A DNA stretch of 64,000 nt from Escherichia coli. Lineage in GTDB: Bacteria; Pseudomonadota; Gammaproteobacteria; Enterobacterales; Enterobacteriaceae. The notes beneath the pieces are model-generated. The model saw nothing but the letters and a program-made list of their open reading frames with translations. It searched no databases and was not told the origin of the DNA. Positions 1 to 10,070 of this stretch are shown one piece after another (the stretch's first letter is position 1; each line of letters opens with the position of its first letter). Where the stretch lies: the NCBI RefSeq assembly GCF_009931435.1, contig NZ_CP043414.1; one strand, given 5' to 3'. A program made the translations under genes and the position numbers.

Positions 1-115
1 TGATAATAAATCATAAAATACATTCACCGAAGATATTTCTCTTTAAAGAGCGTGACATTTATAATAAGTATTGGTGAGAAAAATCACCCCCATTAATTTT
101 TATAAGGATATTCCC

Positions 116-685
116 ATGTTAAAAAAAAGTGCTATTGCTGCGGCATTAGTGATGTTCACCACTTCTGCTTTCGCGCTGGATGGCGGTCAATTAGATTTCG
201 CGGGTTTGGTGAGTGACAACACTTGCGTCTTGCACGTCAACGGTGGCGCCCAGGACGGTCAGATTACCCTGCAAACCGCCACAACCACTGAAGTTAATCA
301 GGCCGGTGTTGTCCAACTTGCCAGCCCTGGCGCAAAACCGGAAGCCTTCTCTATTACGATCGATTGCTCGGACGATCCACAGGGCGCCTCTGCCAATCTG
401 AGCATGGGTTCCGTGTTCTTCAGCAACAGTCAGGGCACTCTGAACAACGATCTCTCCATTAGCCAGGCGGCTACCGGGGTCGCGATTGCCATTCACTACC
501 TTACCGATGCCACTACCTACGAACAGATGAGAGTGAACGACAGCACTGATGTTAAAAACCTGCTGTTTACCAACGGCAAAGCGGTTTACAACTTTAAAGC
601 GTCATATGTAAAACAGGCAGCAACAGTTAACGCAACGGCAGGTTATGTCAAAACCAACGCCGCTTATACAGTGACTTACCAGTAA
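116..685 (+). CDS. yadN: Fimbrial major-subunit-like protein, first gene of the yad chaperone-usher operon
   Basis: Signal peptide MLKKSAIAAALVMFTTSAFA; fimbrial-subunit-like C-terminus (YTVTYQ); AAGGAT RBS before ATG at 116. Track start at 71 is an upstream in-frame ATG with no RBS. Confidence 0.85.
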   Translation: MLKKSAIAAALVMFTTSAFALDGGQLDFAGLVSDNTCVLHVNGGAQDGQITLQTATTTEVNQAGVVQLASPGAKPEAFSITIDCSDDPQGASANLSMGSVFFSNSQGTLNNDLSISQAATGVAIAIHYLTDATTYEQMRVNDSTDVKNLLFTNGKAVYNFKASYVKQAATVNATAGYVKTNAAYTVTYQ

Positions 686-742
686 ATATCTGCATCACCC
701 GACAGCCCACGGGCTGTTGGGTCACTCAATAAGGATAGTGTT

Positions 743-1486
743 ATGACCAGGATGTGTCAGTTTATTGTTTCCACTGCTTTCGTCGCATCGACAGCCGTTT
801 TCAGCCTCACCGCGCAAGCAGATATTGTGCTTTCCGGTACGCGCATTATTTATAATGCCGACCAGAAAGACGTCACATTGCGCATGGAAAACAAAGGTGC
901 CCGCCCACTATTAGTTCAGACCTGGATTGATACCGGCAGCGAAAATGCCGACCCCAGCACACTGAAAGTGCCTTTTACCGTGACGCCGCCGGTTTCCCGC
1001 GTTGATGGTAAAAAAGGCCAAACGGTTAAAATTGCCTGGAGCGCCAGCCAGACCCTTCCAGCCGATCGCGAAAGCGTTTATTGGTTCAATGCGCTGGAAG
1101 TTCCCCCCAAGATGAACGATGCCGATGCCAAGGGAAAAAACATTCTGCAATTGGCTTTCCGTACCCGTATCAAGCTGTTCTATCGCCCAACCGGCCTGGC
1201 GGGTAACCCGGCTGATGCACCAAAACAGTTAACCTGGCGTCTCCAGTCTTCAGCCGGAAAAGTGGTGTTGCAGGCAACAAACCCAACGCCTTATCACGTC
1301 TCATTCAGCAGTATTACCCTTGCCTCAGGCGGTAATAAATATACCGTGGAAAGCAGTATGGTCGAGCCCAAAAGCAGTGCGGAAATGGTGGTAAAAGGCG
1401 CTCCCCGTTCTGTGTCTGGCGCAACAGTTGAGTACTCAGCCATTAATGATTTTGGCGGTGGCATTGACGGCAAAGTCAAACTTTGA
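743..1486 (+). CDS. ecpD: Periplasmic pilus chaperone (PapD-like)
   Basis: 247-aa ORF with signal peptide and PapD-like chaperone N-terminal domain; sits between major subunit and usher. Also called yadV. Exact start (743 vs 752) uncertain. Confidence 0.9.
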   Translation: MTRMCQFIVSTAFVASTAVFSLTAQADIVLSGTRIIYNADQKDVTLRMENKGARPLLVQTWIDTGSENADPSTLKVPFTVTPPVSRVDGKKGQTVKIAWSASQTLPADRESVYWFNALEVPPKMNDADAKGKNILQLAFRTRIKLFYRPTGLAGNPADAPKQLTWRLQSSAGKVVLQATNPTPYHVSFSSITLASGGNKYTVESSMVEPKSSAEMVVKGAPRSVSGATVEYSAINDFGGGIDGKVKL

Positions 1487-1518
1487 TGCCCACAGACGAG
1501 ATCGGCTGAGATCGTACA

Positions 1519-4125
1519 ATGAAGATCCCCCACGATGGCAAAAGAATTCAACGATCGCCGCTCGCTTGCCTGATTGCGTGTAGCCTGCTGCCCTGCACAC
1601 AAAATGTGTGGGGGGCAAACGAGACCGTTGAGTTTGATAACACGTTCCTGATGGGCGCAGGTGCCAGAGATATTGATGTCAATCGTTACAGCAAAGGTAA
1701 CGCAACATTGCCGGGGCGCTATGACGTCAGCGTGTTTATTAATAACCAGGCCAGCGCCAATCTGAAAATCGAGTTTATTGAATTAGACCCTGAACACGCT
1801 GCTCAGCCCTGTATCTCCACCAACACATTATTACAACTGCATATTCGCCAGCCAGAAAAGTTAGCGGATAACGCAATTTTGCAAAAACGCGAAAATGCTG
1901 CGCAGGATTGCCTGAACGTAGAGGTTGCTATTCCGCAATCGAGCGTCGCTTACAATAGCAACGATCAGCGGCTTGATATCAGCATGCCGCAAATCTGGCT
2001 GCAGAGAACCTATGCCAACTATGTCGATCCGTCGCTGTGGGATGAAGGCATCAATGCCGCAATGCTCTCTTACACCCTTAACGGCTGGCGCAGTGAATCC
2101 CCCAATCAAACCACAGAAACCAGCTACGCCGGACTGATGGGCGGTATCAATTTATGGGGATGGCATTTTCGCTCACATGGTAACTATTCGTGGGACAAAG
2201 AAGACGGCGGCAGTTTTGAATTTCAGGATAAATATCTGCAACGCGATATCGCCGCGCTCCGCTCTCAGCTGGTAATGGGTGAAACCAATACCACAGGAGA
2301 AACCTTCGACTCGGTGCCTATTCGCGGGCTGCGACTCTATAGCGAAAGCCGCATGTTGCCCCCTACGCTGGCGTCGTATGCGCCTGTTATCCGTGGCGTG
2401 GCAAACTCTAACGCGAAAGTCACGATCACCCAAAACGGTTATAAAATTTATGAAACGACCGTGCCGCCTGGTCCATTCGCGATTGACGATCTCACGCCGG
2501 CAGGGTTCGGCGCCGATCTCGAGGTGACCATCACCGAATCGGACGGTTCAAAACGTACGTTTAGTCAGGCTTATTCATCGGTGATCCAGATGATGCGTCC
2601 CGGCGTGGGCAAATGGGATATCAGCGCCGGTGAGGTCAATAAAGCGGAACTCCAGGATAAACCTAACCTGCTGCAAGGTACCTACTATTACGGGTTGAGT
2701 AACACCTTCACCGGCTACACCGGCCTGCAAATGACCGATAACGGTTACTGGGCCGGTTTATTAGGGGTGGGCATGAATACATCGCTGGGCGCTTTCTCCT
2801 TCGATGTTACTCAGTCTCATGCCGAAATTCCTGACGATAAAACCTATAGTGGACAGAGTTACCGTGTTTCATGGAACAAATATTTCGCCCCGACCGAAAC
2901 CTCACTCAACATTGCCGCCTATCGCTACTCCACTGAAAACTATCTGGGGCTGAACGACGCGTTAACGCTGATTAATTCTGCCAACCATCCTGATGAAGAA
3001 GGCTATTCGGGGATTGTCAGTTATGCACGCATGAAAAATCAGTTCAGCGTTAGCATTAATCAAACGTTAAAAAGTGATGAACGTGACTATGGCTCTTTCT
3101 ATGTGAATGGCACATGGACAGATTACTGGGTAACCAACGAATCACAGAGCAGTTTTGCCTTTGGCTACAGCAATGCCTTTAACTGGGCGAGCTACAGCGT
3201 CAGCCTGCAACGGACATACGATGAAGACAATAAGAAGGATGACTCGATTTATCTGAGTGTGACCATTCCGCTTGATAAACTGCTTGGCCGCGATAGCCAT
3301 CAGGGCGGGTTCAAAACCCTGAACACCAGCGTTAACAGCGACATGAAAGGGAGCTCACAATTTAACGCCAATGCCTCGGGCTACAGCCAGGATAATCGCT
3401 GGAGTTACAGCGTGAATACCGCCTATAACGTGCAGAAAAACAGCGACAGCCTGAAAAGTATCAGCGGTTATACCAGCTATGAGTCGCCGTGGGGAACATT
3501 TTCAGGCTCAGCCTCCACCAGCAGCGATCGCTCACGTCAGTATGGGCTCAGCACCGATGGCGGTTTTGTACTCCACCGCCACGGTCTGACCTTCAGTAAC
3601 GACAGTTTTACCGACTCTGACACGTTGGCGCTGATCAACGCCCCGGGTGCAAAAGGCGCGCGCATTAACTTTGGTAACAGCACCATCGACCGTTTTGGCT
3701 ACGGCGTGACCAGTTCACTGTCACCGTACCGGGAAAATACCGTCGCGCTCGATGTTAACGATCTGGATAACGACGTGGAGCTCAAAAACACCAGTAGCGT
3801 CGCCATTCCGCGCCAGGGTTCCGTCATTTTCAGCCACTTTGACACCGATACCGGGCGCTCCGCCATTCTCAATTTACTGCGTAGCAACAATCAGCCCGTG
3901 CCGTTTGCTTCCGATATTACCGACGAAAAAGGGACCTCTATCGGGACCGTCGGTCAGGGCAGTCAGGCATTTGTACGCGGCATTGCCGACAGCGGTGAAC
4001 TGACGGTCACCTGGTATGAGAAAAATAGTCGCCAGCAGTGCCGTATTCATTATCAGATACCGTCATCACCCACCATGACCGGTAAAACCATCGTACTCAA
4101 CGGCGTGCCATGCACCCAGCAATAA
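1519..4125 (+). CDS. htrE: Outer-membrane fimbrial usher
   Basis: 868-aa ORF, usher size and position in chaperone-usher operon; start may be slightly downstream of track start. Confidence 0.9.
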   Translation: MKIPHDGKRIQRSPLACLIACSLLPCTQNVWGANETVEFDNTFLMGAGARDIDVNRYSKGNATLPGRYDVSVFINNQASANLKIEFIELDPEHAAQPCISTNTLLQLHIRQPEKLADNAILQKRENAAQDCLNVEVAIPQSSVAYNSNDQRLDISMPQIWLQRTYANYVDPSLWDEGINAAMLSYTLNGWRSESPNQTTETSYAGLMGGINLWGWHFRSHGNYSWDKEDGGSFEFQDKYLQRDIAALRSQLVMGETNTTGETFDSVPIRGLRLYSESRMLPPTLASYAPVIRGVANSNAKVTITQNGYKIYETTVPPGPFAIDDLTPAGFGADLEVTITESDGSKRTFSQAYSSVIQMMRPGVGKWDISAGEVNKAELQDKPNLLQGTYYYGLSNTFTGYTGLQMTDNGYWAGLLGVGMNTSLGAFSFDVTQSHAEIPDDKTYSGQSYRVSWNKYFAPTETSLNIAAYRYSTENYLGLNDALTLINSANHPDEEGYSGIVSYARMKNQFSVSINQTLKSDERDYGSFYVNGTWTDYWVTNESQSSFAFGYSNAFNWASYSVSLQRTYDEDNKKDDSIYLSVTIPLDKLLGRDSHQGGFKTLNTSVNSDMKGSSQFNANASGYSQDNRWSYSVNTAYNVQKNSDSLKSISGYTSYESPWGTFSGSASTSSDRSRQYGLSTDGGFVLHRHGLTFSNDSFTDSDTLALINAPGAKGARINFGNSTIDRFGYGVTSSLSPYRENTVALDVNDLDNDVELKNTSSVAIPRQGSVIFSHFDTDTGRSAILNLLRSNNQPVPFASDITDEKGTSIGTVGQGSQAFVRGIADSGELTVTWYEKNSRQQCRIHYQIPSSPTMTGKTIVLNGVPCTQQ

Positions 4126-4141
4126 TGTTCCAGGAGAGGAA

Positions 4142-4714
4142 ATGAGAGCTTTTTTACTACCGCCCCTGCTGCTGCTGACGTCGCTTTGTCTGCGCCCCGC
4201 ACTGGCAACCGATCTTTCGGTGAACTTTACCGCGACCATCAAAGAGACGACCTGTGCCATGACGCTCAACGCATTGAATGGGGCCAATATCAGCGGTGAT
4301 ACCGCAACAAATAACTATTATCTGGATCTGCCTGATATGGGTGTTTCAGACATTGTGAATAAATCGTCACTGTCGGAGGCTAATTTTAAAATCCTTGCCA
4401 GCAATTGTAATAACTATATTTCCGGCCTGTCGATGACCCTCAATGGCGCAGTCAGCAGCTATACAGATTCGTTAATCGGTAATGACCAGACCGTTTCCGG
4501 ACATACCAACTATGTTGGTCTTGGTATTAAACGTATGAACGCTGATGAAAATCTCCGCTTTAAACTCAACGGTAGCCAGCGAGTTACCTGGACGAATGAT
4601 GAAATAAGTAATGGATTAGATCTTACAGCCATGCTTCGTCAGACCACCACCGGGAATACGATCACCACAGGCCAATTCCAGGCCAAAGTGACTTTCGTCT
4701 TTACCTACCAATAG
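4142..4714 (+). CDS. yadM: Fimbrial minor-subunit-like protein
   Basis: 190-aa ORF with signal peptide, conserved Cys pair and fimbrial C-terminal strand (VTFVFTYQ). Confidence 0.85.
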   Translation: MRAFLLPPLLLLTSLCLRPALATDLSVNFTATIKETTCAMTLNALNGANISGDTATNNYYLDLPDMGVSDIVNKSSLSEANFKILASNCNNYISGLSMTLNGAVSSYTDSLIGNDQTVSGHTNYVGLGIKRMNADENLRFKLNGSQRVTWTNDEISNGLDLTAMLRQTTTGNTITTGQFQAKVTFVFTYQ

Positions 4715-4719
4715 CAGGT

Positions 4720-5322
4720 TTGTTTATGAATTATCACAATATAACCTTTGTCTTGCTGCTGTGCTTTGGATATATCGCCATCGGCCACGCCGCCAGTAGC
4801 TCTATGGACGTTACGGTACGTGCTAAGGTCACTGCCAGTACCTGCACGGCGGAATTACGCGATGCGCAGGATCAGCAAGCCACCACCATCGCTATTGGCG
4901 ATGTCTATCTCAACGAGCTTTCCGCTAAATCGAAATACCAGAACTTCAGCCTGGTGTTTTCAAACTGCGAAGGGTTAGCAAAGGATCAGGCAAAAGTTGT
5001 GCTTTCTGCACAGACGGGCTGCGATGGCGCTTCCAGTACCGGTGGCGGATACCGTAATGCACTGACGACGGCGGACGATGATGCGGCAACCGGTGTTGCG
5101 GTTGAAGTGTGGACGACCAATCAGCCAGAAGGTCAGGGCAGCATTCAGCTTAATTGTAAAACCAAACCGACCAGTATTGTTGATTTAGCTGCGGCAACAG
5201 GCTCGAATATTGTCCAATGGCCGCTCAGTGCCCGGATTGTAGTAGCTTCCGATAACACCATCGCTGATGTACGCGCCGGGCAATTCTCCACTAATGCAGT
5301 CTTTTCTGTGACCTATGAGTAG
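4720..5322 (+). CDS. yadL: Fimbrial minor-subunit-like protein
   Basis: 200-aa ORF with signal peptide and fimbrial C-terminus (AVFSVTYE). Confidence 0.85.
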   Translation: MFMNYHNITFVLLLCFGYIAIGHAASSSMDVTVRAKVTASTCTAELRDAQDQQATTIAIGDVYLNELSAKSKYQNFSLVFSNCEGLAKDQAKVVLSAQTGCDGASSTGGGYRNALTTADDDAATGVAVEVWTTNQPEGQGSIQLNCKTKPTSIVDLAAATGSNIVQWPLSARIVVASDNTIADVRAGQFSTNAVFSVTYE

Positions 5323-5895
5323 ATGATTATGAAAACAGTTATCTACATGATTGCGTTTTGGTTTTCTTACAACGTCATTGCAGCCAGTACCAATATTAAT
5401 ATGACTGCCAATATCATCAGCACCAGTTGCCGGGTCACGCTCGACAATAATGGAAATATTGATTTAGGCACAGTGGATTATAGCTATCTGAATAATAATA
5501 CCTCTGTCGATCGCGTCTATTCTGGCGGGCACCCCTTTTATATTACCGTCAGCGACTGCGCGCAGGTAGCGGGGAAAAATCCGGCCCACCTGACCGTCAG
5601 CTTTACGCCTTTGGCAGGCACCCTTGCGCCAACCAACCTCCAGGTATTCGCCAACCAGCAGGTCAACGGTGCAAAAAATGTCGGCGTGGTTATTTTATCG
5701 ACCGAGGACGCACAGCATATTTTCAATGTGCTCGACACGCGTGGTCAACCGCAAAGTATTTACCCCGTGACGCCCGAAACGATCGCTAACGCGACATACC
5801 ACTTTTACGCTCGGATGCAAAAAATTGACCCTACACAAGCGGTAACCAGCGGCGTGGTAAAAGCGAGCGTATTTGTTGGGGTTTATTATGAATAA
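5323..5895 (+). CDS. yadK: Fimbrial minor-subunit-like protein
   Basis: 190-aa ORF with signal peptide and fimbrial C-terminus (SVFVGVYYE); starts immediately after yadL stop. Confidence 0.85.
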   Translation: MIMKTVIYMIAFWFSYNVIAASTNINMTANIISTSCRVTLDNNGNIDLGTVDYSYLNNNTSVDRVYSGGHPFYITVSDCAQVAGKNPAHLTVSFTPLAGTLAPTNLQVFANQQVNGAKNVGVVILSTEDAQHIFNVLDTRGQPQSIYPVTPETIANATYHFYARMQKIDPTQAVTSGVVKASVFVGVYYE

Positions 5896-5921
5896 TCTAT
5901 ATCACTCTCAAGGATGAAGAG

Positions 5922-7154
5922 ATGAACACGCAATACTTTTCCCGGTCTAAGCAGTGGTGTCGAACACTGCTGGTTCTGTTGTCCTTCTATTCAGGCTGCC
6001 TGCACTCTGCCAACACAATAATCGTCGGCAACAAAACCTATTCAGGTTCGACGGAAAATAATTCCGGTCCACAGGGGGATGGCAGCGCAACGGCAACGTT
6101 CAGTACCGGGGCAAATCAGATAGTGATCCCAACCTCAGCGGGGCTACAAAGTAGCAACATCAGGCTCCAGCTGGGTTGGGTGGATACAAACTCATCAGGA
6201 AATAGCCTGATTTACTGTGGCGCTGGCGGAATGGGAACACCATTAACCCTGGAGAGCCATTTCGTTGATGCTCTGGTGAGTGCAGATGGCCACAAGCTCT
6301 TTAAAACCAATGTGCAGGGTCTCTACTTCAGGATGCACATGTACAATGTAAGCTCATTCAAAACAACCTCCAGCAGCGATATCTATATCGGTGATACCCC
6401 CCAACAAACATTGACATTAACGCCCGAGCATTCCGTATGCGTCGCCGATCTGGGGAATTACACAGCCGTAGGCGGTCTGGTCAGTAAAATTGATATTGAG
6501 TTTTATAATGATGGCACCTTCAATCCCAATACGACAGGTAGCATCGCTTTACTGAGCAACAAGGGATATCACTATTCAGTGACAAATGCAGCGCCTGGTG
6601 GTGCATTGACATCGCACTATATTTATCAGACGTTCAACATGGGGAATGTTACGCTTAGCTCGCCAACCTGTACCTCAGCGGTCGTTTCGGGGAATACAGT
6701 TCAGGGAGATACAGTCAGCCTCGGTGAATACAACCCCAAAGACATCCTTGATGGCGTTGACGGTATCCCTTTTGGTATAGCACTAAAGAACTGTTTCCGG
6801 GTCACCAATATCGAGGTCAAAATGACTACCGGCGCCCCTGCAATGTCGGCTGCGTTATTGGGTAACTCGTTAACCGCCGAAGCCAATGCCGCCAACGGCG
6901 TAGGCGTGGAGATAAAAGGAAAATCGAACTCACATTATGCCGAGGTAGTTCTTCACCCTAATGACACCCATTCTGTTTATAAAGCCTATGTCGATACAGC
7001 TGACACGTCGAATGGCATTATTGGTTCAGGCACATCGGGAACCGCAGCAAATCAAACGCTAAATTTTGTCGCCACTCTCAAACAAGACAACAATCAACAA
7101 ATCAGAGGCGGGGATTTCAAAGCGACCGCCGTTTTCTCTATCACCTACCCCTGA
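5922..7154 (+). CDS. yadC: Fimbrial tip adhesin-like protein (two-domain)
   Basis: 410-aa ORF, last gene of operon, pilin-like C-terminus (AVFSITYP) plus larger N-terminal domain. Confidence 0.85.
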   Translation: MNTQYFSRSKQWCRTLLVLLSFYSGCLHSANTIIVGNKTYSGSTENNSGPQGDGSATATFSTGANQIVIPTSAGLQSSNIRLQLGWVDTNSSGNSLIYCGAGGMGTPLTLESHFVDALVSADGHKLFKTNVQGLYFRMHMYNVSSFKTTSSSDIYIGDTPQQTLTLTPEHSVCVADLGNYTAVGGLVSKIDIEFYNDGTFNPNTTGSIALLSNKGYHYSVTNAAPGGALTSHYIYQTFNMGNVTLSSPTCTSAVVSGNTVQGDTVSLGEYNPKDILDGVDGIPFGIALKNCFRVTNIEVKMTTGAPAMSAALLGNSLTAEANAANGVGVEIKGKSNSHYAEVVLHPNDTHSVYKAYVDTADTSNGIIGSGTSGTAANQTLNFVATLKQDNNQQIRGGDFKATAVFSITYP

Positions 7155-7162
7155 GCCCCGCT

Positions 7163-7187
7163 ACCGGCAGGCCCCCTGCCGGTTTTG
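7163..7187 (+). terminator. Rho-independent terminator after yadC
   Basis: Stem ACCGGCAGG / CCTGCCGGT followed by TTTT, directly downstream of yadC stop. Confidence 0.7.
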
Positions 7188-7271
7188 ACCACAAAGGGCT
7201 AACACTCATCACTGACATCCCCTACAATGCGCCAATCCTATAGATAACACTTATGACTAACAGGGGTTATG

Positions 7272-8066
7272 ATGAAACCGACCACCATCTCCTTGCTGAA
7301 CAAATACAAACAAGAAAAAAAACGCTTCGCCACTATTACCGCTTACGACTACAGCTTCGCTAAATTGTTTGCCGAAGAAGGACTTAACGTGATGTTGGTT
7401 GGCGATTCGCTGGGCATGACTGTTCAGGGGCACGACTCCACACTCCCGGTAACCGTTCAAGATATCGCCTACCACACTGCTGCCGTACGTCGTGGCGCAC
7501 CAAATTGCCTGCTGCTGGCCGACCTGCCGTTTATGGCGTACTCCACCCCGGAACAGGCCTTTGAAAATGCCGCCACAGTAATGCGTGCCGGAGCCAATAT
7601 GGTCAAAATTGAAGGCGGCGCATGGTTGGTTGAGACGGTACAAATGCTGACTGAACGCGCAGTTCCGGTGTGTGGTCATTTAGGTTTAACCCCACAGTCA
7701 GTGAATATATTTGGCGGCTACAAAGTACAAGGGCGTGGCGATGAAGCGGGCGATCAACTGCTCAGCGATGCGTTAGCCTTAGAAGCCGCTGGTGCACAGT
7801 TGCTGGTGCTGGAATGCGTGCCGGTTGAACTGGCGAAACGCATTACCGAAGCGCTGGCGATTCCGGTAATCGGTATTGGCGCGGGCAACGTCACCGACGG
7901 GCAAATCCTCGTGATGCACGACGCGTTCGGTATTACCGGCGGCCATATCCCTAAATTTGCAAAAAATTTCCTTGCTGAAGCGGGCGACATCCGCGCAGCA
8001 GTGCGTCAGTATATAGCTGAAGTGGAGTCCGGTGTTTATCCGGGCGAAGAACACAGTTTCCATTAA
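7272..8066 (+). CDS. panB: 3-methyl-2-oxobutanoate hydroxymethyltransferase
   Basis: Translation begins [33 protein letters not shown], matching PanB; start set to second Met (264 aa). Confidence 0.97.
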
Positions 8067-8077
8067 GGAGTCACGTT

Positions 8078-8929
8078 GTGTTAATTATCGAAACCCTGCC
8101 GTTGCTGCGTCAGCAAATTCGCCGCCTGCGAATGGAAGGCAAACGCGTGGCGCTGGTGCCTACTATGGGTAACCTGCACGATGGTCATATGAAGCTGGTC
8201 GACGAAGCCAAAGCCCGCGCCGATGTGGTCGTCGTCAGTATTTTCGTTAACCCGATGCAGTTTGACCGCCCGGAAGATCTGGCTCGTTATCCACGCACTT
8301 TGCAGGAAGACTGCGAGAAACTAAACAAACGTAAAGTGGATCTGGTTTTCGCTCCCTCGGTAAAAGAGATCTATCCGAACGGTACAGAAACCCACACCTA
8401 TGTCGATGTTCCAGGCCTTTCCACCATGCTGGAAGGTGCCAGCCGTCCAGGACATTTTCGCGGCGTATCGACCATCGTCAGCAAACTGTTCAACCTGGTC
8501 CAGCCGGACATCGCCTGCTTCGGTGAAAAGGATTTTCAGCAACTGGCACTGATCCGCAAAATGGTTGCCGATATGGGCTTCGATATTGAGATTGTCGGAG
8601 TGCCGATTATGCGCGCGAAAGACGGTCTGGCGCTCAGTTCCCGTAACGGCTATCTGACGGCGGAACAACGTAAAATTGCGCCGGGTCTGTACAAGGTCTT
8701 AAGTTCAATTGCCGACAAATTGCAGGCTGGCGAACGGGATCTCGATGAAATTATTGCTATTGCCGGGCAAGAATTGAATGAAAAAGGTTTCCGTTCCGAT
8801 GATATTCAGATTCGCGATGCCGACACCTTGCTGGAAATCGCTGAAAACAGCAAACGAGCGGTGATTCTGGTAGCCGCCTGGCTTGGCGATGCTCGCCTGA
8901 TCGACAACAAAATCGTCGAACTGGCGTAA
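8078..8929 (+). CDS. panC: Pantoate--beta-alanine ligase (pantothenate synthetase)
   Basis: 283 aa, [37 protein letters not shown]; GTG start at 8078. Confidence 0.97.
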
Positions 8930-8947
8930 TACTTATACTCTAAATAA

Positions 8948-9062
8948 TTCAAGTTGCAGGAAGGCGGCAAGCGAGTGAATCCCCAGGAGCTTACATAAGT
9001 AAGTGACTGGGGTGAGCGAACGCAGACGCAGCACATGCAACTTGAAGTATGACGAGTATAAC
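8948..9062. repeat. ERIC (enterobacterial repetitive intergenic consensus) element
   Basis: Contains ERIC core GTGAATCCCCAGGAGCTTACATAAGTAAGTGACTGGGGTGAGCG flanked by inverted repeat AAGTTGCA...TGCAACTT; lies between convergent panC and rpnC. Confidence 0.85.
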
Positions 9063-9149
9063 TGGCGCTACGGCTGATGGCGCCAATTATTAATTTGCCC
9101 CACATCATGGCGATGACGTCTGTAAGCGATTATTCATATCGCAGGCAAT

Positions 9150-10070
9150 TTAGTTAAACAGCTTATCAAGCTCAGCAAGAGGTAAATTTGCCATCTCTGC
9201 AACGTCTTCCCGAGACATTCCTTTACTCAGAAGACGCAGGGCGAATTCTTGCCTTTCCTCCTGTCTTCCCAGCTGAATCCCCTTCTCAATCCCCTTCTCA
9301 ATTCCCTTCTCAATTCCCTTCTCTTCAAACCACTGCGCCAACGTCATCATAGACTCCCCTCCCGTTTCCCTGTCTCTCACCACACCATAAAACAAATCCG
9401 CTTGTTCAGTATGACCGCGTTGCAGCATATAGTTTTGCATGGCAACTAACTGACTTCCGCTAGTGTACCCTTCGTCAATCAGCGTGACCAGTTGCTCCAG
9501 CAATAACATTAAGTCGCGCTGGCGAATATGTTTTTGCAGCAGTTCGAGAATCGCAATCCGCCGATGTTGCATGATTTCGTCATCCGGTGTGATAGTGATA
9601 TCCACCAGCGGGAAAGGACTGTTATAGACGCGTCGCGCCAGCTCCGGCGAGTAAAACATATCAAACCAGCACATTGAGAGCGGATAAGGTGTGGCCTCGC
9701 CCTGATAAAACAGAATCGGCACCACCAGCGGCAGCTTATCGTGATCTGCCTCCAGATGCCGGTGCATGGCAGCAATAGAATAACGCATCATGCGAAACGC
9801 CATTTTTTTATCCGGCTTGCTTTGGTGTTCAATCACAACATGTAGATAGCCCGTATTACCCTGCATTTGCACGGAATAGAGCACGTCAGTGCTGTGCCCT
9901 TTCAGGCTTTCTTCAATAAAACTCCCCGACTCAAGATGCAGCGTGTCGAGGTCACACAGTTCGCGTAGCTCCGCTGGCAAATGGATATCCAGAAAGTCGC
10001 GAGCCGTTTCCGCGTGCATTAAAAATTGTTTAAACACCGCATCATGCGGTGTGGTACTCGGTGCATCCAT
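9150..10070 (-). CDS. rpnC: Recombination-promoting nuclease, Rpn/YhgA-like (PD-(D/E)XK, transposase_31 family)
   Basis: 306-aa ORF with Rpn-family N-terminus and C-terminal EKGI tetrapeptide repeats; position between panC and panD as for yadD/rpnC. Exact start uncertain. Confidence 0.85.
   Translation of the reverse strand: MDAPSTTPHDAVFKQFLMHAETARDFLDIHLPAELRELCDLDTLHLESGSFIEESLKGHSTDVLYSVQMQGNTGYLHVVIEHQSKPDKKMAFRMMRYSIAAMHRHLEADHDKLPLVVPILFYQGEATPYPLSMCWFDMFYSPELARRVYNSPFPLVDITITPDDEIMQHRRIAILELLQKHIRQRDLMLLLEQLVTLIDEGYTSGSQLVAMQNYMLQRGHTEQADLFYGVVRDRETGGESMMTLAQWFEEKGIEKGIEKGIEKGIQLGRQEERQEFALRLLSKGMSREDVAEMANLPLAELDKLFN
9278..9323 (-). repeat. In-frame 12-bp tandem repeat (about 3.8 copies) inside rpnC, encoding (EKGI)n
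   Basis: TCCCCTTCTCAA x2, TTCCCTTCTCAA, then partial copy; translated on minus strand as GIEKGIEKGIEKGI. Confidence 0.9.

Follow-up and report, generated by a model that had tools for sequence, protein, structure and literature searches.

The stretch of Escherichia coli DNA analyzed here (64,000 nucleotides of contig NZ_CP043414.1, RefSeq assembly GCF_009931435.1; hereafter, the window) opens in the intergenic region between folK and a cluster of fimbrial genes. Seven intact plus-strand open reading frames (ORFs) are packed at positions 116–7154 with intergenic gaps of 0–57 nt, and an AGGA-type ribosome-binding site precedes most of their start codons. Based on the Pfam domains of their products (Table 1), they form a compact, co-directional chaperone-usher operon encoding a major pilin, a chaperone, an usher, three minor pilins, and a two-domain adhesin, as the initial annotation had stated. 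The Pfam E-values across the operon products ranged from 1e-10 to 1e-161, far beyond chance. The gene order is that of yadN-yadV(ecpD)-htrE-yadMLKC in E. coli K-12, directly upstream of panB. Judged from the sequence comparisons described below, however, the window type is a rare, deeply divergent Yad-family operon, distinct from the type of K-12 and uropathogenic E. coli (UPEC).

Table 1. Features of the fimbrial locus in the window.
Feature	Coordinates	Strand	Evidence and remarks
AT-rich folK–yadN intergenic region, 3′ end, cut by the window edge	1–115	+	GC 28%
YadN-like major pilin, 189 aa	116–685	+	Pfam Fimbrial 3e-13
PapD-type periplasmic chaperone, YadV/EcpD-like, 244–247 aa	743–1486	+	PapD_N 2.4e-43, PapD_C 1.2e-19
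HtrE-like outer-membrane usher, 868 aa	1519–4125	+	PapC_N 1.7e-41, Usher 5.8e-161, PapC_C 7.1e-21
Minor pilin 1, YadM/StaD-like, 190 aa	4142–4714	+	Pfam Fimbrial 2e-13
Minor pilin 2, YadL/StaE-like, 198–200 aa	4726–5322	+	ORF opens at TTG 4720
Minor pilin 3, YadK-like, 188–190 aa	5323–5895	+	Pfam Fimbrial 1e-13
YadC-like tip adhesin, 410 aa	5922–7154	+	Pfam Fimbrial at residues 246–409 only
Terminator-like hairpin, 9-bp GC-rich stem, 3-nt loop, UUUU	7163–7186	+	Fold energy, conservation
panB promoter-like site CTAACA-18-TACAAT	7199–7228	+	Promoter scan; downstream boundary, outside the operon

A signal peptide, a Cys pair approximately 45 residues apart, and a C-terminal xTYx motif were found in all five pilin-type products. 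The YadN-like protein carries its Cys pair at Cys37/Cys84 and ends in TVTYQ, and an AAGGA ribosome-binding site lies 7 nt 5′ of its ATG at 116. Its top NCBIfam model was StaA, with 142 bits against a cut-off of 230. The YadM-like protein (Cys38/Cys89, C-terminal FTYQ) scored 115 bits on the StaD model (cut-off 228), and the YadL-like protein (C-terminal VTYE) scored 168.9 bits (1e-49) on the YadL model (cut-off 206). The YadK-like protein exceeded the cut-off of its model, NF011794, with 205.5 against 132 bits. Each minor pilin corresponds by position to a K-12 counterpart. The three had been described in the initial annotation as paralogues; they share a fold family but are scarcely alignable to one another (BLASTP E-values from about 0.006 to no match).

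The chaperone retains the motifs of the subunit-binding cleft, GTR and RIKLFYRP, and scored 369.7 bits on NF007398 (cut-off 285), on which K-12 YadV scored 472. In near-identical genomes, its start was placed 9 nt downstream of 743 by the Prokaryotic Genome Annotation Pipeline (PGAP). The usher scored 1365.9 bits on NF007337, with a cut-off of 830; the next usher family gave at most 548 bits, a margin of more than 800 bits. The scores of K-12 HtrE and the O157 usher on NF007337 were 1701 and 1561, respectively.

The region upstream of the operon was examined in the near-identical locus L008, in which position 6483 corresponds to position 1 of the window. The full folK–yadN spacer is 503 bp in length (L008 6095–6597) with a GC content of 33%, and its sole sigma-70-like site is located at L008 6189–6218, upstream of the window; the promoter scan detected no strong promoter for the operon inside the window. 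The spacer contained only weak, short inverted repeats, with no phase-variable invertible-promoter switch found, and an Rfam search across L008 gave no match. A counterpart of the spacer was absent from the K-12 and O157 loci. Between Escherichia sp. 94.0001 and E. albertii, identity is about 96% in the spacer but lower in the neighboring genes, at 93.7% for folK and 86% for yadN. This conservation suggests that the spacer is a regulatory region under constraint or has a recombination history of its own.

At the other end, the hairpin directly after the adhesin stop codon consists of ACCGGCAGG-CCC-CCUGCCGGU (7163–7183) followed by UUU, with the U run at 7183–7186. Its 49-nt context gave a fold energy of −23.2 kcal/mol (z = −2.8 versus shuffled sequences). 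All window-type loci retain the hairpin; in E. albertii, a G:C pair of its stem is replaced by A:U, a compensatory change. At this position, K-12 and O157 carry other hairpins. The conservation and the compensatory change support a structural role for the hairpin. The stem is followed by only four U residues, and the consensus terminator scan passed over the hairpin for this reason; the short tract also counts against its reading as a terminator. The "strong terminator" of the initial annotation is thus real as a hairpin, by fold and conservation, but "strong" is an overstatement. The panB promoter-like sequence beyond it is conserved in all window-type loci and in Pseudocitrobacter; panB (7269–8066), which starts 115 nt past the adhesin stop, is followed by panC (8078–8929).

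To place the operon, its genes were compared one by one with those of K-12, with the Stbl4 region as reference. The protein identities of YadN, YadV, HtrE, YadM, YadL, and YadK were 55%, 55%, 60%, 39%, 37%, and 41%, respectively. The adhesin was 38% identical to K-12 YadC overall, with 30% in the N-terminal (lectin) half and 47% in the C-terminal half. PanB and PanC showed 97–98% protein identity to those of K-12. Identities to the O157 operon were 27–61%, and those of PanB and PanC across K-12 and O157 were 95–98%. The usher and the chaperone share NCBIfam equivalog families with the K-12 and O157 types. The adhesin fell short of the YadC equivalog, its best score among NF007267–NF007270 being 270.4 bits on NF007268 (cut-off 382); K-12 YadC scored 884.5. 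In the carrier genomes, PGAP labels the seven genes generically, without yad names.

Fimbrial types have been defined by usher clade and genomic locus, and Yad has been equated with Sta of Salmonella (Wurpel et al. 2013, PMC3559732). The locus, the usher model, and the gene order of the window operon all agree with Yad/Sta, the usher being placed by its NF007337 score. The folK gene lies outside the window and was seen in L008, which is 99.1% identical, and in all related loci, and the operon thereby occupies the folK–panB interval. As far as sequence can tell, the window operon is of the Yad type by this definition of usher clade plus locus, and the synteny and the NCBIfam cut-offs bear out the yad locus, gene order, and usher and chaperone family given in the initial annotation. 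A different definition was used in a 2026 PLoS Pathogens study of Yad, in which strains with HtrE of at least 80% identity and length were counted as Yad-positive; the usher was 80–100% conserved at the nucleotide level among these strains, and phylogroups D and E were largely or wholly Yad-negative (PMC13245861). The HtrE-like usher of the window was 60% identical to that of K-12 and 58–60% to the large E. coli HtrE clusters, EC958 not being compared directly, and the window strain would score Yad-negative by the 80% criterion.

Of 5,426 complete E. coli genomes searched by megablast, 14 carried the operon. Its identity was 97.8% in two of them, 96.9% in nine, and 90.7%, with 88% coverage, in the remaining three. 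The usher gene of the non-carriers was at most 68% identical at the nucleotide level. Outside E. coli, Escherichia sp. 94.0001 (GCA_013369155.2) has an identical usher (100%), and across 12.1 kb its DNA matches the window at 99.1% identity. Usher identities were 89% and 87% for E. albertii, 83% for [Enterobacter] lignolyticus, 81% for Pseudocitrobacter faecalis, 62–64% for Citrobacter, Salmonella, and Superficieibacter, and 58–60% for the large E. coli HtrE clusters. The usher cluster at 90% identity or more also contains many draft E. coli genomes, E. fergusonii, Escherichia sp. TW15838, and Pseudocitrobacter sp. 73. This distribution was taken from protein searches and a cluster look-up; the usher scan of species-representative contigs, which requires near-exact 8-mers and matched only P. 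vendiensis, says little about it.

The folK–operon–panB synteny was observed in K-12, O157, window-type E. coli, Escherichia sp. 94.0001, E. albertii, P. faecalis, and P. vendiensis, and O157:H7 has a different seven-gene operon between folK and panB. Usher identities were 59–60% between the window and K-12, 55% between the window and O157, and 60% between K-12 and O157; those of the adhesins among the three types were 27–38%. The GC contents of the window, K-12, and O157 operons were 50%, 42%, and 47%, respectively. In the usher tree, the three types formed three deep clades, each mixed with ushers of other genera; the window usher grouped with those of E. albertii, P. faecalis, and [Enterobacter] lignolyticus (81–89%), and its identities to the K-12 and O157 clades were 59% and 55%. 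These sequence data argue for at least three deep, mutually exclusive operon types at folK–panB, those of K-12, O157, and the window.

Two further observations were made at this locus. The O157 adhesin (L007 10800–11909, 369 aa) gave no NCBIfam match at E ≤ 1e-20 and was 27% identical to both the K-12 and window adhesins. In P. faecalis GCA_042646645.1 (L012), no usher and no panB were called and the YadK-like protein was truncated to 115 aa, with the affected stretches at 4568–7221, 8633–8980, and approximately 10240–11160; in a second P. faecalis assembly (L013), the usher, panB, and YadK-like genes were intact. The missing and truncated gene calls in L012 could be due to pseudogenes or sequencing errors.

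The adhesin comprises a signal peptide (approximately residues 1–29), a receptor-binding domain (approximately 30–243; 6009–6650), and a pilin domain (approximately 244–410). It is homologous to K-12 YadC over its whole length, with Cys99/Cys173 and the motifs GHxLFKTN..GLY and FYNDxTFxP conserved. An AlphaFold2 model built on a 24-sequence alignment showed a signal helix, a confident beta-rich N-terminal domain (residues about 30–240) with a predicted local distance difference test score (pLDDT) of about 90, and a weaker C-terminal pilin domain. Modeled alone, the N-terminal domain had a pLDDT of 89.4 and a predicted template modeling score of 0.85. Its beta-sandwich best matched the receptor-binding domains of AtfE, UclD, GafD, and LpfD in structure. 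The receptor-binding domain is thus predicted to be an F17G/GafD-like beta-sandwich, and the model supports the two-domain organization of the adhesin. The initial annotation had named the lack of a separable N-terminal domain as the finding that would speak against an adhesin; such a domain is predicted alongside the C-terminal pilin domain, and the adhesin reading therefore stands. A relative recognizable by sequence was also sought in the PDB, and none was found at E ≤ 1.

For the K-12/UPEC alleles of YadC, the ligands reported are xylose-containing glycans (Larsonneur 2016, as cited in PMC13245861) and annexin A2 (PMC6921372), and the binding pocket is undefined even for K-12 YadC (PMC13245861). 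The statement in the initial annotation that the receptor of YadC is not well defined is therefore somewhat dated for K-12/UPEC and still holds for the window allele. The published ligands cannot be transferred to the window adhesin because its lectin domain is only about 30% identical to that of K-12 YadC.

Selection on the operon was examined by a gene-by-gene comparison of the window with eight related loci (L002, L004–L006, L008, L010, L011, and L013). Each of the seven ORFs is intact both in the window and in these loci. The ratio of nonsynonymous to synonymous divergence (dN/dS) was 0.03–0.26 across the comparisons, with dS up to more than 1, and the operon is under purifying selection. 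The sub-variant of E. coli MFDS1022581 differed unevenly from the window. At the amino acid level, the usher was 97% identical, the products from YadN to YadL were 88–97% identical, and YadK was 80% identical (75% at the nucleotide level); in the adhesin, the lectin domain was 47% and the pilin domain 74% identical. Since the usher is 97% identical but YadK only 80% and the lectin domain only 47%, the comparison points to separate exchange of the tip module (yadK-yadC), above all of the lectin domain.

Transfer between genera was indicated by P. vendiensis. Its tract from the yadN-like gene to panB (L004, approximately 4579–12540) is 99.6% identical to that of E. coli MFDS1022581 (L006, 5092–13091), with 30 differences in 8 kb, all of them before the final 1.6 kb; in panB, identity reaches 100%. 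An abrupt rise in divergence, to about 14%, marks the junction at the panB/panC border, and the other junction lies just before the yadN start codon. The flanking genes gluQ, pcnB, panC, and rpnC of P. vendiensis are 86–92% identical to those of P. faecalis and 72–84% to those of Escherichia, whereas the tract itself is 66–86% identical to that of P. faecalis. An Escherichia-like tract of 99.6% identity between Pseudocitrobacter-like flanks implies that DNA from an Escherichia donor entered Pseudocitrobacter by homologous replacement. One further pilin gene of P. vendiensis (L004 3832–4404) separates folK from the imported yadN-like gene. Its nucleotide identity to any of the yadN-like genes examined is only 70–74%, and it could represent either a remnant or a further variant of the major subunit.

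The rest of the window (7272–64000) is collinear with K-12 at 88–99% identity, which confirms the operon as its only accessory-like island. The parts without a match in K-12 were 1–7271, except for two weak matches of about 65% in the chaperone and usher genes, and 8936–9058. The latter is a window-specific intergenic stretch of 123 bp between panC and rpnC; conversely, at 29047–29078, K-12 has about 148 bp that are absent from the window. Both small indels are probably intergenic repeat elements. Repeats of about 300 bp at 30216–31109, with 78–79% identity and offset-shifted cross-matches in K-12, correspond to the aceF lipoyl domains and are ordinary.

Identity to K-12 is 88–95% over approximately 7 kb 3′ of the operon and 94–99% beyond. 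Within 7272–14000, panB, panC, rpnC, and yadE showed nucleotide identities of 87.9%, 93.5%, 92%, and 93.5%, respectively. The region at 40–46 kb is 95–99% identical to ordinary E. coli genomes. From this identity and the divergent 7 kb, the organism is thus E. coli-like, with a locally more divergent neighborhood around the fimbrial locus. The GC content of the operon (50.0%) is near that of its flanks (panBC, 52.6%), and a foreign island by composition was ruled out. Carriage by a mobile element or plasmid was ruled out as well: all 485 of 485 E. coli matches were chromosomal, no transposase or integrase was found in 1–7300, and the operon was in none of the plasmid records, the sole two matches being 75 nt in mis-filed chromosomes.

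Taken as a member of its family, the operon would work as follows. All seven products would be exported by Sec, and the PapD-type chaperone would cap each subunit by donor-strand complementation. At the HtrE-like usher, assembly would begin with the two-domain adhesin; the minor pilins and the YadN-like rod would follow, polymerized by donor-strand exchange. The resulting fimbria would be thin and flexible and would present the receptor-binding domain at its tip. The probable start of transcription is in the AT-rich folK–yadN spacer, which lies mostly upstream of the window, and its end would be the 7163–7186 hairpin. The types at the locus would be replaced by homologous recombination through the conserved flanks, with the tip module exchanged separately.

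We consider it very probable that the window carries an intact Yad/Sta (gamma-4) chaperone-usher operon at the folK–panB locus, belonging to a deep type apart from that of K-12/UPEC. The system is of an ordinary kind, and the operon is an uncharacterized, rare, divergent member of it. Several points weigh against this assignment. The Pfam search at E ≤ 0.001 gave no Fimbrial match for the YadL-like protein, and the adhesin and three of the four pilins (YadN-, YadM-, and YadL-like) are below their NCBIfam equivalog cut-offs, only the YadK-like protein passing. The pilin domain of the AlphaFold2 model has a pLDDT of 55–80, as expected without a donor strand. The usher tree is a midpoint-rooted neighbor-joining tree without bootstraps or a non-Yad outgroup and was used for its grouping, not for its deep order. 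The P. vendiensis tract was seen in a single draft assembly, for which a chimeric assembly is a less likely alternative. The promoter region in the spacer is mostly outside the window, and the assembly and function of the fimbria are what we infer from homology, intact genes, and dN/dS. Repression by H-NS is established for the AT-rich yad operons of K-12/UPEC (GC 42%); similar control of the window type is plausible at the spacer, the coding region not being AT-rich, and H-NS silencing may not apply equally to an operon with 50% GC.

The initial annotation had identified the operon as the known cryptic Yad fimbria of E. coli. If it were the canonical, characterized Yad of K-12/UPEC, H-NS silencing and the binding of xylose and annexin A2 would transfer to it, and the shared locus and seven-gene order, the similar protein lengths, and the common equivalog models of usher and chaperone would fit. 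However, protein identities of 37–60%, a lectin domain at 30%, and an adhesin with 270 bits versus 884 for K-12 YadC on NF007268 (cut-off 382) do not agree with such an identity, nor do a GC content of 50% versus 42% and the lack of a megablast match in 5,412 of the 5,426 E. coli genomes. The canonical K-12 Yad is thereby refuted at the sequence level, and we give it hardly any credence. It is also improbable that the operon is a silent relic without present function. K-12 Yad and many chromosomal chaperone-usher operons are silent under laboratory conditions (PMC13245861, PMC3559732), and no strong promoter was seen within the window; however, a relic would hardly keep seven ORFs intact in the window and eight loci under a dN/dS of 0.03–0.26, or conserve signal peptides, Cys pairs, C-terminal motifs, and cleft residues, and the O157 type, which is just as divergent, produces fimbriae upon induction (PMC7098969).

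The history of the type is less clear-cut. It may be the ancestral operon of Escherichia, vertically inherited and later replaced in most E. coli rather than introgressed, an account that we entertain without favoring it. E. albertii has the same type, locus, and gene order with an usher at 87–89% amino acid identity, and the usher cluster at 90% or more includes E. fergusonii and Escherichia sp. TW15838, as such inheritance would predict. On the other hand, dS between the window and E. albertii is 0.5–2.0 in the operon versus 0.46–0.68 in panB/panC, the flanks of the window operon depart unusually far from typical E. coli over about 7 kb, and a clear recent transfer of the window type was seen in P. 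vendiensis. Vertical inheritance and introgression are not mutually exclusive, and the present data do not separate them. Returning to the divergent Yad/Sta operon, we tentatively propose that folK–panB is a "fimbrial serotype" locus comparable to the O-antigen locus. Several ancient, mutually exclusive Yad/Sta types would be kept in Enterobacteriaceae under diversifying or balancing selection and shuffled through their housekeeping flanks within and between genera, with the exchangeable tip module of yadK and the yadC lectin domain setting a specificity that, in the window, would differ from xylose/annexin A2.

These findings leave the working knowledge of chaperone-usher fimbriae unchanged; their interest lies in a multi-type, recombining locus and a divergent adhesin. 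Surveys of Yad by similarity to the K-12 or EC958 genes would miss strains with a complete operon under purifying selection, and typing, adhesiome, and vaccine-target studies should treat the folK–panB locus as multi-allelic. The lectin domain of the window, at about 30% identity to K-12, is a candidate for a new binding specificity. The P. vendiensis tract suggests that chromosomal fimbrial operons can cross genera by flank-mediated replacement without a mobile element.

Compared with adhesins of known structure, namely AtfE (6H1Q), UclD (7MZP), Abp1D (8DF0), GafD/F17c (1OIO), LpfD (5AFO), and MrkD (3U4K), the receptor-binding domain of the window showed 9–15% sequence identity and is longer, at approximately 214 residues versus 163–187, and a ligand pocket cannot be inferred from these six. 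The Yad of K-12/UPEC shares the folK–panB locus, the seven-gene order, the usher and chaperone equivalog families, and a two-domain YadC-type adhesin with the window, but the window differs from it in amino acid sequence (37–60% identity, about 30% in the lectin domain), in GC content (50% versus 42%), and in the spacer and hairpin sequences; ligands and H-NS control have been shown for the K-12/UPEC alleles only. The Yad of O157:H7 (ECs0139–ECs0145) is likewise a divergent seven-gene operon at folK–panB with the same usher and chaperone families, and it differs in its usher (55%) and in an adhesin that is 27% identical and shorter (369 aa), which makes it a third type. ECs0139–ECs0145 have been called Yad and produce thin, flexible gamma-4 fimbriae when induced (PMC7098969). 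For Sta of Salmonella (staABCDEFG), the StaA, StaD, and StaE models were best or near-best for the window pilins, all with scores below their cut-offs. The ushers of Salmonella and Citrobacter are 62–66% identical to the window-type ushers (62–63% to that of the window), slightly closer than K-12 HtrE, in a comparison that took the Salmonella ushers together, whether Sta or not, and the Salmonella relatives of the adhesin are about 41% identical to that of the window.

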